Positions 9,219-39,553 of a stretch of 64,000 bases of DNA are shown piece after piece (the stretch's first letter is position 1; each line of letters starts with the position of its first letter). The notes below the pieces were generated by a model, which saw only the letters and a program-made list of their open reading frames with translations, made no database searches and was not told the origin of the DNA. The stretch comes from an uncultured Muribaculaceae bacterium. Lineage in GTDB: Bacteria > Bacillota_I > Bacilli_A > RF39 > UBA660. A program made the translations under genes and the position numbers. The DNA is taken from NCBI GenBank assembly GCA_964630365.1, contig CAZVUP010000003.1:98-64097 (forward strand). The letters are read 5' to 3'.

Positions 9219-9929
9219 ATGAAGAATGATGTAGAGGTTAAGGCTGAGAAAATTTATAAAAGAAAAGTATTTAAGAAGATAGTTAAGATTTCTTTTTTAC
9301 TATTATTAATTCTTCTATCGATAATATATTTGGTTCTGTATATTGTTTATGAAGGTGGAAGATTTACTGTTTCCTTAGATAAGAATTTGTCTAATAGGAA
9401 AAATGTTTTCTTATCAGAAAATGGTAAAATTGAAGATAAGACTCGTCAATTAGGAGCAGAAACTATTGATTATATGGATAATATTTCTGTAAAGTGGTTA
9501 CCTGATGATATTGATAATGAAGGCTATGGAGCACATAATGGTAATAACTATATTGCTTATACGTTCTTTGTTGTTAATGCAGGTAAAGAGCTTGTAAATT
9601 ATTGGTACGAAGTTGATATTGATGATACTATTTTGAATGTTGATGAAGCTGTTCGAATTATGGTGATTCGAAATGGTAAGAAGACAATTTATGCTAAGAA
9701 AAATAAGAAGACAGGACTGGCTGAAGAAGGAACTAAGAAGTTTGCTTCTAAATCGATTGCAGTTCTGGAACAAAGAAAAAATTTCAAACCCAATTCAAAA
9801 GATAAATTTACAATAGTTGTTTGGATTGAAGGGGATGACCCGGAATGTGAAAATGATTTGTTGGGTGGAGAAATTAAAATGCACATGGCTATAACAGAAG
9901 AACATGTTGATAAAAAAAGTAAGAAATAA
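9219..9929 (+). CDS. Membrane-anchored TasA/camelysin-like protein (possible fibre anchor or accessory, TapA-like role)
   Basis: K-rich N-tail, TM ISFLLLLILLSIIYLVLYIVY, then EGGRFTVSLD. The C-terminal WIEGDDPECENDLLGGEIKMHMAI is homologous to the C-terminus of the next gene. Confidence 0.6.
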   Translation: MKNDVEVKAEKIYKRKVFKKIVKISFLLLLILLSIIYLVLYIVYEGGRFTVSLDKNLSNRKNVFLSENGKIEDKTRQLGAETIDYMDNISVKWLPDDIDNEGYGAHNGNNYIAYTFFVVNAGKELVNYWYEVDIDDTILNVDEAVRIMVIRNGKKTIYAKKNKKTGLAEEGTKKFASKSIAVLEQRKNFKPNSKDKFTIVVWIEGDDPECENDLLGGEIKMHMAITEEHVDKKSKK

Positions 9930-9941
9930 AGGAGTTTTTTT

Positions 9942-10976
9942 ATGACAAAAGTGGAAGCTAAAAGAAATAGAAGAAGAAGAAAATTATTTTTTGCGATTAT
10001 AATGATATTATTTGTAGGTATTGTTTTAACTGCATCAACTTATGCATGGTTTACTGCTAATAGATCAGTAACGGTTGAGGCAATTGATGTAAATGTTTCG
10101 ACATCAGAAGGTTTACAGATATCTGTAGATGCTGTTAACTGGAAATCAATTGTTACTAATGCCGATATTACTGGTGCTAGTTGGCAAGGTGTTGTTAACC
10201 AATTACCTGCTACTACTGGTAATGGGGCAACTCCATCAAAGCCAGTATCAACAGTTGGAGCAATTAATTCATCAACAGGATTTATGAATATGTACCTAGG
10301 TAAGATTGAAACATCTGATACTGATGGTGATAATATTTTAACAGCTGTAGCTGATCCTGAAGCTAATGGAACTTCTGGAAACTATGTAGCATTTGATTTG
10401 TTCTTTAGATCTAGTAAACAACAAATGATTTATTTGACATCAAACTCAAAAGTTGTTGCTAAAGACGATTCTGCTAGTGATGGTATTCAAAATGCTGCTC
10501 GTATAGCATTTATTAATCAAGGTAGTGTTGCTTATGGTGCTGAGCCAGCAGATGCAAGAGCTAAAAAAGATGGTAACTTAGTAATGGTATGGGAACCAAA
10601 TGCGGATGTTCATACTGAGGCTGGGGTTAATAATGCTCATGATGTTTATGGCCTTACTACTACAGTTGGACCTAATGCTGCTACACTTACATATCGTGGT
10701 GTAAAGGCACCAATTGCTAAGACTGATGAACAAAAATTAAAAGGTGATAGTACAAATAATGCTAATTTCTTTGGTGATATAAGTACAACTCCAACAACTA
10801 AAGCTGGTATTCCTACTACTGGATATTTACAACTTTTACAAGTTGCTGAAGGTATTACTAAAGTTAGAATTTATATGTGGGTTGAAGGTCAAGATGTTGA
10901 CTGTGAAGACCATGCATCAGGTGGATCAATTACTTATAACTTACAATTTAGTATTGATGATAAACAAGGTGCTTAA
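9942..10976 (+). CDS. TasA/camelysin-like secreted protein with SipW-type signal peptide (candidate major fibre subunit)
   Basis: AAGGAG SD. N-terminus RRRRKLFFAIIMILFVGIVLTASTYAWFTANRS matches the TasA/camelysin GGTxAxF class. C-terminus WVEGQDVDCEDHASGGSITYNLQFSIDDKQ parallels TasA QGNSIKLQFSFEATQ (from memory). Ala/Gly/Thr-rich and visibly more GC-rich than its neighbours. Confidence 0.7.
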   Translation: MTKVEAKRNRRRRKLFFAIIMILFVGIVLTASTYAWFTANRSVTVEAIDVNVSTSEGLQISVDAVNWKSIVTNADITGASWQGVVNQLPATTGNGATPSKPVSTVGAINSSTGFMNMYLGKIETSDTDGDNILTAVADPEANGTSGNYVAFDLFFRSSKQQMIYLTSNSKVVAKDDSASDGIQNAARIAFINQGSVAYGAEPADARAKKDGNLVMVWEPNADVHTEAGVNNAHDVYGLTTTVGPNAATLTYRGVKAPIAKTDEQKLKGDSTNNANFFGDISTTPTTKAGIPTTGYLQLLQVAEGITKVRIYMWVEGQDVDCEDHASGGSITYNLQFSIDDKQGA

Positions 10977-10987
10977 TAATAATATTT

Positions 10988-38207: not shown

Positions 38208-38807
38208 ATGCAAAAAATATTGGATAATAAATTTTTTAAAATAGGATATGGAATAATTAAATATTCTTTTCTTGCGATAATTATTTTATATTTAAGTTTT
38301 ATTTTAATTCAAAGAATTACTGGTAATAAGAGTGTATTTGGTTATCGAGTATTTACTGTTGCGACTGGATCAATGGCTGGTGTTTATGATGTTAATGATG
38401 TAATACTGGTTACAGATTATGATACTGATAAACTAAAAGTTGGGGATGATGTAGCATATCAAGGTGCTGGTTCTTTAGAAGGAAAGCTTATTACTCATAG
38501 AATTATTAGAATAGAGGATGAAGGTTCTGGTCGTGTTTTTACAACGAAAGGTGTTAAATCTGATGTTGAAGATCCTAGCATAGGAGCAAATCAAATACTT
38601 GGTAAAGTAGTTGGAACTGTTCCTGTTATTACATGGTTAAATCATGCTGTTAAAAGTCAATTAGGATTTTTCTTATTAGTATTTTGTCCATTAGTTTTAA
38701 TTATTGCTTTAGAAGTTACAGAAACTGTTATTGAATTAAAAGTGGAGAAAAATGAGATTAGAAAGATAGAAAAAAAGAAAAAAGATGATGATATAGAAAT
38801 TCTATAA
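38208..38807 (+). CDS. sipW: SipW-type (archaeal/ER-type S26) signal peptidase I
   Basis: FTVATGSMAGVYDVNDVILV, KLITHRIIRI, TTKGVKSDVEDP. Two TMs and the normal ~200-aa size. Ends in DDDIEIL. The ATG abuts the upstream TAG. Confidence 0.85.
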   Translation: MQKILDNKFFKIGYGIIKYSFLAIIILYLSFILIQRITGNKSVFGYRVFTVATGSMAGVYDVNDVILVTDYDTDKLKVGDDVAYQGAGSLEGKLITHRIIRIEDEGSGRVFTTKGVKSDVEDPSIGANQILGKVVGTVPVITWLNHAVKSQLGFFLLVFCPLVLIIALEVTETVIELKVEKNEIRKIEKKKKDDDIEIL

Positions 38808-38818
38808 GGGATGGTTAG

Positions 38819-39553
38819 ATGAAAAAGAAAGGCAAAAGTAAAAATTTACGTAAGGCATTACTGAGAAAAAAATATATTGCTTTGCTTTTAGCACTATTTA
38901 CATTTTGTGTTAATATTTTTGCGTGGTTTGCTTTTTCAACTAATGCTCAATTAGAAATAGATGGTACTGTTGCATCTTGGGATGTAGATTTTAAAGATAG
39001 TAATGGGGTTTCTTCAAGAAGATTTGTTGTTGATGTACCTATGAAACCAGGAATGGATGATTTTAGTAAAGTATTTGAAGTTTATAATCGTAGTGATGTG
39101 CCAGCAAAGTTTACTTATGATGTTGTAGGTTTAAAATTATTTGGAAATAGTATTAACATTGATAATATTGCTGATAAAGTTAATTACCTAAAAACAACAT
39201 ATCCATTTGTTATTGATATTTCATCTGATAAGGATACTCTTAATATTGGAGAAACGGCGGAATTTAGTGTTGATGTTACTTGGGAGTTTGAAAGTGCTGT
39301 TGAAAAGTATTACAAAGTTTTAGATTATTATACTTATGATTCTTCTTTTGAATACTTCTCTTTAAATGATAATATATATACTCCAACACCTCTAGCAAAT
39401 GAAATTGCTTATAATAATTTAAAAGCTAATCTTTATTTAGGTAAAGATGATATTGACACTTATTTTGGCATGCAATGTGGTATATATGAAAAAAGTACTA
39501 ATTTACCATGTTTAGTCGTTGACATTAATTTAGTTGTAGAACAAGATAGTTGA
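38819..39553 (+). CDS. TasA/camelysin-like protein with SipW-type signal peptide
   Basis: KKYIALLLALFTFCVNIFAWFAFSTNAQLEIDGTVASWDVDF. C-terminal VVDINLVVEQDS. Confidence 0.65.
   Translation: MKKKGKSKNLRKALLRKKYIALLLALFTFCVNIFAWFAFSTNAQLEIDGTVASWDVDFKDSNGVSSRRFVVDVPMKPGMDDFSKVFEVYNRSDVPAKFTYDVVGLKLFGNSINIDNIADKVNYLKTTYPFVIDISSDKDTLNIGETAEFSVDVTWEFESAVEKYYKVLDYYTYDSSFEYFSLNDNIYTPTPLANEIAYNNLKANLYLGKDDIDTYFGMQCGIYEKSTNLPCLVVDINLVVEQDS

Follow-up and report, generated by a model that had tools for sequence, protein, structure and literature searches.

A conserved locus of uncultured gut Bacilli linking an McrB-type GTPase to SipW-type signal peptidases and putative surface-filament subunits

A 64,000-nucleotide (nt) stretch of contig CAZVUP010000003.1 (assembly GCA_964630365.1, an uncultured bacterium placed in the GTDB lineage Bacilli_A; RF39; UBA660) carries a locus in which genes for SipW-type signal peptidases, small secreted proteins and a giant surface protein stand together with the gene for an McrB-type GTPase. 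This whole stretch is called the window below, and its genes are named by their start positions (Table 1). About 16 core genes of the locus travel together in 80 related loci, and because this synteny is conserved it indicates that they are one system. We consider it probable that this system is one conserved machine of the kind named CoCoPALM, which builds or exports a surface filament or adhesin and is driven or controlled by the cytoplasmic GTPase, the individual steps of its action being each less probable than the whole. The gene content, the state of the active sites, the linkage, the topology given by hydropathy and the intact motifs of the GTPase were read directly. A previous description of the same DNA from its letters (the sequence-only reading) had proposed a single elaborate SipW-linked surface-protein system with dedicated processing factors, and the synteny in the 80 loci bears this out; its observation is confirmed and its interpretation is partly supported. 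It had missed the McrB identity of the GTPase, and it is this McrBC-derived GTPase that defines the class. All the open reading frames (ORFs) that it listed were present at the coordinates it gave, and the starts it chose, 9219 and 32302, correspond to the earliest ATG inside the TTG-started ORFs 9216 and 32266 and match the N-termini of the homologues.

The 80 related loci were fetched through the 9942 protein and all proteins of the window were mapped onto them by tblastn. All of them came from metagenome-assembled genomes (MAGs) under titles such as Bacilli, Mollicutes/Mycoplasma sp. CAG, Erysipelotrichaceae and Clostridium sp. CAG, and the guts behind them were human, goat, sheep and chicken. 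Further contigs (L089-L092) were reached independently through homologues of the GTPase. In the 80 loci and in these contigs the genes stay together and are not scattered. Two recurrent orders were seen in relatives, psiSipW-32266-(short SipW)-32914-33525-[34490]-35538-37077-38208-38819-41453(-)-9216-9942-11168-12890-giant and giant-11168-psiSipW-32266/41453-SipW-32914-9942-psiSipW-33525-…-38819, and L089 and L090 repeat the order as giant-216-202-202-310-347-513-367(DUF2357)-264-247-199(-). Thus the two halves of the window locus neighbour each other elsewhere in another permutation, without the segment 22848-32242. Wherever a homologue of 33525 was accompanied by downstream sequence, the GTPase, DUF2357 and SipW genes were found as well (22/22 such loci), and a SipW gene followed the DUF2357 gene in 22 of 22 informative loci. 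In the nearest relative, whose GTPase is 96% identical, block B, the half with the GTPase, is preceded by a YhcG gene and housekeeping genes and by no adhesins.

Co-orientation of the genes is no evidence of an operon here, since almost every one of the window's 49 ORFs with 150 amino acids (aa) or more lies on the + strand and the GC skew is positive throughout (in every 2-kb bin, at a G+C content of about 28%). Scans of the 64 kb for tRNA genes, Rfam families and tandem repeats gave no tRNA genes, no Rfam matches and nothing relevant.

The GTPase gene 35538 is, by sequence comparison, the best-conserved gene of the system. Its product matched the E. coli McrB structures 6hz4 (E 3.8e-5), 6ut6 and 7vsr with E-values of 4e-5 to 9e-5 (phmmer), the NCBIfam McrB model at 1e-5, which is far under the equivalog cut-off, and the PADLOC candidate-defence model PDC-M26A at 1.8e-36. 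The family (23 sequences) keeps Walker A (GISGTGKTS), Walker B (LDEMNI(A/S)R) and the signature GTINNDDST invariant, and the signature reads N-x-D-D and aligns without a gap to N-T-A-D of E. coli McrB. According to hydropathy the protein begins with hydrophobic segments at residues 5-23 and 62-80, after which come KKYLKFRK and a helix rich in charge, and domain scans gave no DNA-binding domain in residues 1-190, the only matches there being weak FtsL and holin-like ones (FtsL at residues 63-115, E 0.12). We therefore read 35538 as an McrB-type GTPase whose DNA-binding domain is replaced by membrane helices. Its homologues fall into at least 8000 clusters; the best 120 have 81-96% identity along their whole length, and among the matches listed every name read "hypothetical protein".

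The sequence-only reading had called 35538 and 37077 an NTPase pair. Only 35538 is an NTPase, and 37077 is a McrC-type partner that matches DUF2357 (PF09823) at 38.8 bits against a cut-off of 23.3; the same domain is annotated in L089-L092. As to a nuclease in 37077, there was no other Pfam match (E<=0.01), no D...ExK motif in the consensus of the C-terminal half and no match to a PDB sequence. A crude scan found a heptad-like segment at residues 341-369, near its C-terminus. On sequence, then, the GTPase pair has lost the DNA-binding and nuclease parts of McrBC.

Two more genes, 11168 and 34490, encode proteins without a transmembrane (TM) helix, as expected from the cytoplasmic unknowns of the sequence-only reading; a third gene counted among these, 31295, turned out to encode a YhcG nuclease. 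The 34490 protein has diverged past the range of BLAST, and its positional orthologues, present in 21/22 loci, gave a hidden Markov model (HMM) that matched it with an E-value of 1.2e-24 (98.5% with hhalign). No Pfam, NCBIfam or PDB match was obtained for 11168.

Identity to L089 is 83% for the GTPase and 76-81% for two housekeeping enzymes (81% for a methyltransferase), and it falls to 66% for the McrC-like protein, 62% for the giant one, 59-61% for the peptidases and 38-59% for the small proteins that are secreted. Such a gradient is the pattern that would be expected of a conserved cytoplasmic engine with variable surface parts, and it is unlike that of a defence island.

Of the three signal peptidase-like genes that are present in the window locus, 12890 and 38208 had been called apparently active and 22013 inactive in appearance, and both statements hold. 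The products of 12890 and 38208 pass the cut-off of 51.85 bits of the NCBIfam model for archaeal-type signal peptidase I (TIGR02228) and keep the catalytic Ser and His: GSMSG...THR...GD.NN..D.P is invariant in the 12890 family (31 sequences) and SM.P...TH(R/Q)...DP is conserved in the 38208 family (23 sequences). Against the B. subtilis SipW equivalog, with a cut-off of 190, they score only 53 and 73 bits, respectively, and hence they are not SipW orthologues in the narrow sense. Hydropathy places TM helices at residues 4-22 and 130-148 of 12890, which continues into a C-terminal extension of about 260 aa that should be cytoplasmic.

The 22013 protein reaches 25.1 bits with TIGR02228, under the cut-off, and in its family (44 sequences) neither Ser nor His is conserved at the catalytic positions, while the family keeps motifs of its own. 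These data indicate that 22013 is a maintained pseudo-peptidase whose inactivity is itself conserved, and we regard it as a candidate chaperone or adaptor. A 22013-type gene is often present in two copies per locus, and in some relatives (loci L045, L047, L051, L052 and L055) there are two such genes plus a fourth, short SipW gene, which lies between the 32266-type and 32914-type genes. A functional analogy is offered by the signal-peptidase-like S. pyogenes protein SipA/LepA, which is reported to be essential for pilus polymerisation (PMC4049620): like 22013 it would be an inactive signal-peptidase homologue kept in a surface-filament locus. SipA, however, is a relative of the bacterial-type S26 peptidases and belongs to a sortase-dependent pilus locus, whereas 22013 is of SipW type and its locus has no sortase.

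The seven small proteins (9216, 9942, 32266, 32914, 33525, 38819 and 41453) all have the basic N-terminal tail, the single hydrophobic helix and the aromatic cluster that the sequence-only reading had ascribed to them. The cluster is a small-residue/aromatic motif that follows the helix, in the forms TYA↓WF, FA↓WF, SYS↓KY, YT↓AY, YA↓RY, FG↓RY and GG↓RF (the arrow marks the proposed cleavage point). It is invariant or nearly so in the 9942 and 41453 families and present in at least 60% of the sequences of the 9216, 33525 and 38819 families, and it was not resolved in the consensus of the 32914 family. The NCBIfam model for the SipW-dependent signal peptide (TIGR04088) was not among the matches of these proteins, none of which had an NCBIfam match at E<=1. 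A C-terminal strand of alternating residues closed by Q, likewise ascribed to all seven, was found in 32266, 32914, 33525, 38819 and 41453; 9942 fits loosely (…QFSIDDKQGA) and 9216 does not fit. Across 88 diverse relatives of 41453 the terminal Q is invariant at a mean column identity of 27%.

Profile comparisons (hhalign) group most of these families. The 32266 and 41453 families are related over their full length (100% probability, E 4e-50), and 32914 and 38819 link to them with 85-96% probability, 32914 at 95-96% over the N-terminal third to half and 38819 at 93.5% to the 41453 family over about 120 residues. The 9942 protein joins this group by its N-terminal segment alone (81-84%), 9216 links to the 9942 family with 70% probability over a C-terminal W-x-E-G-x-D-x-x-C…GG motif, which the 9216 and 9942 proteins share in the form W-x-E-G-D-D-P-x-C...GG, and 33525 stands apart with weak links to the other small-protein families. 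An exhaustive HMMER search gave 3076 representatives of 41453 relatives at E<=1e-3. More than 2000 homologues of 9942 were found, none with a Pfam domain or a name. Homologues of 9216 (43-98% identity) adjoin those of 9942 in 51/80 loci, two such 9216-9942 modules being present in each of L058 and L064; relatives of 32914 occur in 32/80 loci, and homologues of 33525 (36-44% identity) occur in 23 loci, always just upstream of the cytoplasmic module. The 9216 protein is a candidate initiator or anchor subunit.

Four terminator-like sites were found where 0.4 were expected from shuffled sequences. One such hairpin follows 9942 (Table 1), and a terminator-like hairpin lies at 39543-39567, directly after 38819. 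The former is consistent with an over-expressed transcript of a major subunit. Among 83 homologues of 9942 (down to 40% identity) the stretches WFT.N, G.Q.S.D..WK and YMWVEGQDVDCE, which are residues 36-40, 57-68 and 311-322, are at least 95% conserved. The invariant Asn40, located in the flexible arm, Asp63 and Lys68 recall the N-E-K isopeptide triad of C. perfringens BsaA. An acidic Cys loop common to 9942 and 9216 might, by analogy with archaeal cannulae-type proteins, bind calcium.

AlphaFold2 models of 9942 and 41453 are both confident and have beta-sandwich folds with flexible N-terminal arms. The 9942 model (predicted local distance difference test score, pLDDT, 83.8) has a helix at residues 3-30, a low-confidence arm at 29-41 and then the beta-sandwich; the 41453 model (pLDDT 80.1) has a helix at 6-39, a low-confidence arm at 36-47 and then a jelly-roll sandwich, so that in both an arm of about 12 residues lies between helix and sandwich. 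The best Foldseek match of the 9942 model was the Sulfolobus thread subunit 7pnb (E 2e-3, probability 0.90, TM-score 0.20), and TasA was not in its top 50 matches. For the 41453 model the TasA fibre 8aur_A was fourth (probability 0.96, E 9.4e-3) with a TMq of 0.36, the highest listed, and Eph ligand-binding domains, carbohydrate-binding modules and the PapG pilin domain 2wmp (0.94) also matched. The most probable natural fold matches were donor-strand filament subunits (7pnb 0.90, 8aur 0.96 and PapG 2wmp 0.94). This evidence is weak and points toward subunits of TasA or thread type.

That the small proteins belong to the TasA/camelysin family, as the sequence-only reading had supposed, is not supported, every sequence and profile test having failed. 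None of the seven had a Pfam match at E<=10 or an NCBIfam match at E<=1 beyond noise (for 9216 there was no Pfam or NCBIfam match), none of 88 diverse relatives of 41453 matched Peptidase_M73 (Pfam PF12389, IPR022121) at E<=0.1, the profiles of two of the families found no TasA and no other match among PDB sequences, and phmmer searches of PDB sequences with 9942 and 38819 gave nothing useful. The best hhalign result against a TasA alignment was 53%, in the signal peptide only, and deeper profiles gave 1.4% or less; this alignment was shallow, being made of eight TasA-family proteins of Bacillus plasmids, the genes for which were found with a TasA query, and of B. subtilis TasA. The plasmid proteins carry GGGTYA-YFSD at the same place as the motif of the small proteins and end in …F.A.Q. 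TasA itself is reported to be cleaved by SipW and to have Phe at P2' of the cleavage site (PMC10269814). Our reading, based on the models and motifs, is that the small proteins would be substrates of SipW-type peptidases with a beta-sandwich and a flexible N-terminal arm, as expected of donor-strand filament subunits; on sequence they are not demonstrable members of TasA/camelysin, and we put remote common ancestry with that family at roughly even odds.

The giant protein 14126 was correctly described as a beta-helix protein of 2.6 thousand aa in so far as a G-G-rich array of rungs could be counted in its ORF: there are 22 rungs of the form [VILAF][YF][GA]G[GSNAF], and 20 of them (residues 1061-1579) are spaced about 25-36 residues apart. 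It had no match in Pfam, NCBIfam or PDB sequences. The giant gene is present in 53/80 loci, and the orthologue in L089 and L090 has 2844-2845 aa.

The segment 22848-32242 is a different matter. The domains of the two von Willebrand factor A (vWA) adhesins and of the repeat protein that had been described here are confirmed, and their place as integral parts of the system is not: relatives of the vWA proteins occur in 4/80 neighbourhoods, Flg_new in 1/80 and YhcG in 1/80, and the vWA and repeat-protein genes are absent from L089 and L091. We rejected the vWA and Flg_new proteins as core displayed adhesins given that they are not conserved with the system, and the distribution indicates that the four genes (the vWA pair, Flg_new and YhcG) are lineage-specific insertions at a variable junction. 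The proteins of this insert may still use the pathway, as the N-termini of the vWA proteins carry a SYFA↓YD-type motif, and in these vWA proteins, as in the giant protein and the seven small ones, a basic tail and a TM helix go together with a small/aromatic motif. The junction 22753-32266 varies, from vWA, vWA, Flg_new and YhcG here to no insert in many other MAGs; in the nearest relative (L001/L091) it appears, from contig coordinates, with PnuC, PurA, NrtR and Ham1 plus YhcG, the YhcG homologue being directly upstream of block B (5807-6697 in L091).

Table 1. Features of the locus in the window, with coordinates, strand and the evidence for each.
Coordinates	Strand	Feature	Evidence
9216..9929	+	Small secreted/anchored protein, 237 aa, likely start 9219	One N-terminal TM helix
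9942..10976	+	Candidate major subunit of 344 aa, with basic tail, TM helix, invariant TYAWFTAN and beta-sandwich	
10988..11007	+	Terminator-like hairpin and T-run	12 nt after 9942 stop codon
11168..12799	+	Conserved cytoplasmic protein, 543 aa, no TM helix	In 60/80 loci
12890..14116	+	Archaeal/ER-type signal peptidase I (SipW type), predicted active	TIGR02228 60.9 bits, catalytic motifs
14126..21976	+	Giant surface protein, 2616 aa, N-terminal TM/signal helix, beta-helix-like repeat array	
22013..22753	+	Catalytically dead SipW paralogue (pseudo-peptidase), acidic C-terminal tail	25-32 bits only
22848..29183	+	Two paralogous vWA surface proteins, 1058 and 1049 aa, 51% identical	VWA_2 1e-15, 4e-15
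29185..31272	+	Flg_new / InlB B-repeat surface protein, C-terminal TM helix	Flg_new_2 8.5e-16, Flg_new 6e-14
31295-32242		YhcG/DUF1016 PD-(D/E)xK nuclease	Pfam YhcG_C 1e-34; PADLOC candidate defence PDC-S02 3.6e-61
32266..32910	+	Small subunit, likely start 32302, full-length 41453 paralogue	TM helix, STYT↓AY motif
32914..33516	+	Small subunit, 200 aa, remote relative of 32266/41453 family	
33525..34457	+	Small/medium subunit, 310 aa, own family	TM helix, FG↓RY motif
34490..35536	+	Fast-evolving cytoplasmic protein, 348 aa, no TM helix	Positional orthologues
35538..37064	+	McrB-type AAA+ GTPase, N-terminal membrane helices, short helical stalk	McrB match, motifs
37077..38207	+	McrC N-terminal-domain (DUF2357) partner, without detectable nuclease	DUF2357 8e-10
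38208..38807	+	Second SipW-type signal peptidase, predicted active	TIGR02228 68.7 bits; start abuts stop codon of DUF2357 gene
38819..39553	+	Small subunit, 244 aa, FAWF motif	hhalign to 41453 family
41453..42055	-	Small subunit, 200 aa	Synteny; between 38819-type and 9216-type genes in many relatives

The sequence-only reading had not recognised this organisation as a described system, which is right in that it has never been described in detail and wrong in that it already has a name. In one paragraph, Bell et al. 2024 (eLife, PMC11090510, section 7) named a large clade of McrB-like GTPases CoCoPALM and deferred its description. CoCoPALM is there a clade made up of "CoCoNuT-like systems", with CoCoNuTs being predicted RNA-targeting restriction systems; its GTPase carries the signature N-x-D, after which E or another D usually comes, and is fused to an FtsB-like segment of TM and coiled-coil structure, its McrC homologue has a coiled coil, and it associates with proteins of the signal-peptidase family (PMC11090510). 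The locus fits CoCoPALM in that a McrB-lineage GTPase stands beside a DUF2357 McrC homologue and signal-peptidase genes adjoin; the TM/helical N-terminus of the GTPase may be the FtsB/FtsL-like segment, and its signature can be read as N-x-D with a second Asp behind it. Judging by these features it appears to be of the CoCoPALM kind. A coiled coil was not clearly detected in the GTPase, and the "deletion" in the signature is not visible, the alignment being ungapped. The CoCoPALM paragraph does not speak of the families of small subunits, of the inactive peptidase paralogue, of the giant protein or of the two cytoplasmic proteins, all found here. We found no later paper that uses the name or describes the association, and no CoCoPALM detail in the supplementary files examined.

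In the tapA-sipW-tasA operon of B. subtilis and in sipW-tasA-calY of B. cereus, as here, the gene of an archaeal-type peptidase lies beside those of its substrates, and the matrix fibres are assembled by donor-strand exchange (PMC9674648, PMC10151520). The aromatic motif at P2', the beta-sandwich with a flexible N-terminal arm, the C-terminal strand with Q and the presence of a minor subunit gene beside the major one are further likenesses. No homology to the subunits of the TasA systems is detectable, and the present system differs from them in the number of its peptidase-like genes (three or four, against one) and of its subunit genes (seven, from at least three families). It also has a giant protein and, in the cytoplasm, a GTPase module with further proteins, all of which the TasA system lacks. 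The C. perfringens cluster sipW-bsaA-bsaB-bsaC likewise brings together SipW, remote TasA-like subunits and a vWA protein (PMC7395162, PMC11580942), but there the vWA gene is part of the cluster and here it is not conserved with the system. In C. perfringens some type IV pilus-associated genes are needed for the products of the cluster, BsaA oligomers among them, to be secreted efficiently, BsaC, the vWA protein, requires the type IV pilin PilA3 for its secretion, and in the model proposed subunits join while anchored by their signal sequences and are cut by SipW afterwards (PMC11580942). By analogy this dependence would be a precedent for machinery-assisted export of TasA-like material, with the difference that the helpers in C. 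perfringens are type IV pilus proteins encoded elsewhere, whereas here the helper would be an McrB-type GTPase within the locus.

With E. coli McrBC (6hz4, 6ut6, 7vsr) the locus shares the AAA+ GTPase core with Walker A and B, the Asn/Asp signature and a partner with the McrC N-terminal domain. It differs from McrBC in having membrane helices in place of the DNA-binding N-terminal domain, a partner in which no PD-(D/E)xK nuclease was detected, a low similarity (E about 1e-5) and a context of envelope genes rather than of modification or restriction. An archaeal-type signal peptidase and beta-sandwich subunits are features common to the archaeal threads (7pnb, PMC9715654) and the AbpA bundling pili (PMC9245690). 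The Sulfolobus thread subunit, although the best Foldseek match of 9942, is a weak one without sequence similarity. We know of no NTPase module for the archaeal thread or AbpA filaments.

Three other kinds of system were considered and rejected. A type IV pilus or type II pseudopilus does not fit, as prepilin peptidase, PilB-type ATPase and PilC were absent from Pfam and NCBIfam scans of the locus proteins; the motif of the small proteins lies after the hydrophobic helix, and a class III signal peptide would be cut before it. A sortase pilus does not fit either, the core small proteins having no C-terminal sorting signal (NPxTG-type signals are found only on the upstream proteins 6132 and 7651). 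A plain restriction system was rejected on the synteny and on the lost DNA-binding and nuclease parts.

How such a machine might work can be outlined as follows. Sec would insert the subunits, with their N-terminal helices as anchors, and the two active peptidases (12890 and 38208) would cut after the small residue (…TYA↓WF…), freeing an arm of about 10-15 residues. The freed arm would probably insert into the next subunit, in a donor-strand exchange as in TasA, BsaA and archaeal threads. The 9942 protein would be the abundant shaft subunit, because it is the most highly conserved of the subunits, has more than 2000 homologues and has a hairpin 12 nt past its stop codon; 9216 would be the initiator or anchor, and the 32266/41453, 32914, 33525 and 38819 types would be minor subunits acting as initiator, adaptors or tip. 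The giant, beta-helix-like 14126 may be a cargo or tip that is carried or co-exported, and the dead paralogue 22013 may hold or present subunits. A hexameric, membrane-tethered ring of the GTPase 35538 would sit on the cytoplasmic face and be activated by the McrC-like 37077, with 34490, 11168 and the cytoplasmic tail of 12890 as possible soluble partners. GTP hydrolysis would then drive or gate assembly, either by releasing anchors or by pushing the polymer and the giant protein through the wall. Peptidase cleavage, polymerisation of the subunits and the role of the GTPase are what we infer from the gene content and the models. In this full form, a new nucleotide-driven surface-filament or secretion machine of Gram-positive bacteria, in which an McrB ring with membrane anchors powers the assembly or export of SipW-processed donor-strand subunits plus a giant adhesin, the proposal is a tentative one to which we give less than an even chance.

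Several observations weigh against this interpretation. Neither TasA/camelysin nor any solved filament subunit shows significant similarity, in sequence or in profile, to the small proteins, and the fold matches are weak (E above 1e-3, TM-score at most 0.36). The charged helix of the GTPase (residues 88-122) is short and failed a crude heptad scan, which is a poor test for a coiled coil. Blocks A and B of the nearest relative appear, from L001/L091 coordinates, to lie about 6 kb apart with housekeeping genes between them, and the locus therefore need not be one transcription unit. No experimental work exists on any member, and every homologue seen came from an uncultured MAG. The relatives of the GTPase for which a role has been proposed are restriction or defence systems, the GTPase matches a PADLOC defence-candidate model, and to our knowledge there is no system in which an McrB-type GTPase acts on proteins or membranes.

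The same genes could instead form a dedicated secretion apparatus, in which the small proteins stay anchored or form a short, pseudopilus-like piston or channel and the GTPase powers the export of the giant protein, and sometimes of vWA adhesins, through the wall and their mounting there. This would account for the giant gene in 53/80 loci, directly after a SipW gene, for the number of components on the cytoplasmic side (11168, 34490, 37077 and the tail of 12890) and for the maintenance of at least four small-protein families as separate orthologous groups, which resembles minor pseudopilins more than the two or three paralogues of a TasA locus, and the requirement of C. perfringens BsaC secretion for the type IV pilin PilA3 is compatible with it (PMC11580942). 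Yet the conservation of 9942, well beyond that of the other small subunits, and the hairpin that comes after it are typical of an abundant structural subunit, the active peptidases with their conserved catalytic residues would argue for release of the anchors, and the fold matches point, if weakly, to filament subunits; we consider an apparatus devoted to secretion unlikely.

A role in conflict or defence, in which the McrBC-derived GTPase would, for instance, sense phage attack on the envelope or on a receptor fibre while sensors, decoys or effectors are provided by the secreted proteins, appears improbable. It would agree with the McrB lineage and the PDC-M26A match (1.8e-36), with the description of CoCoPALM as a clade of "CoCoNuT-like systems" (PMC11090510) and with the PDC-S02/YhcG nuclease, whose gene lies within the present locus and adjoins that of the nearest relative. 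This nuclease is, however, found in only 1/80 neighbourhoods, and no nuclease or nucleic-acid-binding domain was detected in the GTPase pair. Defence islands are typically patchy and fast-evolving, whereas the GTPase is conserved at the level of housekeeping genes and the gene order is stable across divergent MAGs. Finally, the locus might be a chance mosaic of tapA-sipW-tasA-like operons beside an unrelated McrBC module and adhesins on one strand. The co-orientation of the whole window would allow this and the segment 22848-32242 truly is a lineage-specific insertion, but the GTPase pair is flanked by 33525/34490 and by SipW/38819 in 22/22 informative loci and in L089-L092, and it lacks the DNA-binding and nuclease parts. 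As far as synteny can tell, a chance mosaic is close to refuted, and we regard it as very improbable.

The surroundings of the locus were also examined. Between 38819 and 41453(-) lies a DUF1846 gene (39633-41096), which is also present in L091 and L092 and is absent in L089, where the subunit genes are adjacent. Just upstream, the genes 6132-7646 and 7651-9081 encode two surface proteins, one DUF11/SpaA-like and the other leucine-rich repeat/internalin-like. Their ends, NPNTG and NPKTG with a hydrophobic segment and a basic tail behind, are sorting signals of sortase type and suggest a peptidoglycan wall. Downstream, an envelope-glycan cluster (47007-61505) encodes GT4, a GT28+GtrA fusion, two paralogous NAGPA phosphodiester glycosidases and GDSL, and the same region holds a fusion of a solute-binding protein with vWA (55305-56915) and an AAA+ protein with AAA_lid_6 (59925-61505).

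Filaments of TasA or thread style are currently thought to self-assemble after Sec export. If the proposed machine is true, it would be a new, energy-dependent route to such filaments and the first case in which a restriction-enzyme motor (McrB) is re-used for building the cell surface, the ring being analogous in role to the PilB-type ATPases of type IV pili with all parts unrelated. The present inventory of genes gives content to CoCoPALM, a class that has been in the literature by name only since 2024 (PMC11090510). The system is very common, with at least 8000 clusters of the GTPase and about 3000 representative clusters of small subunits, and it is carried by uncultured Bacilli with small genomes that live in human and animal guts and have a surface biology hardly studied so far. 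In these gut Bacilli it is likely to be a major determinant of attachment in the gut.

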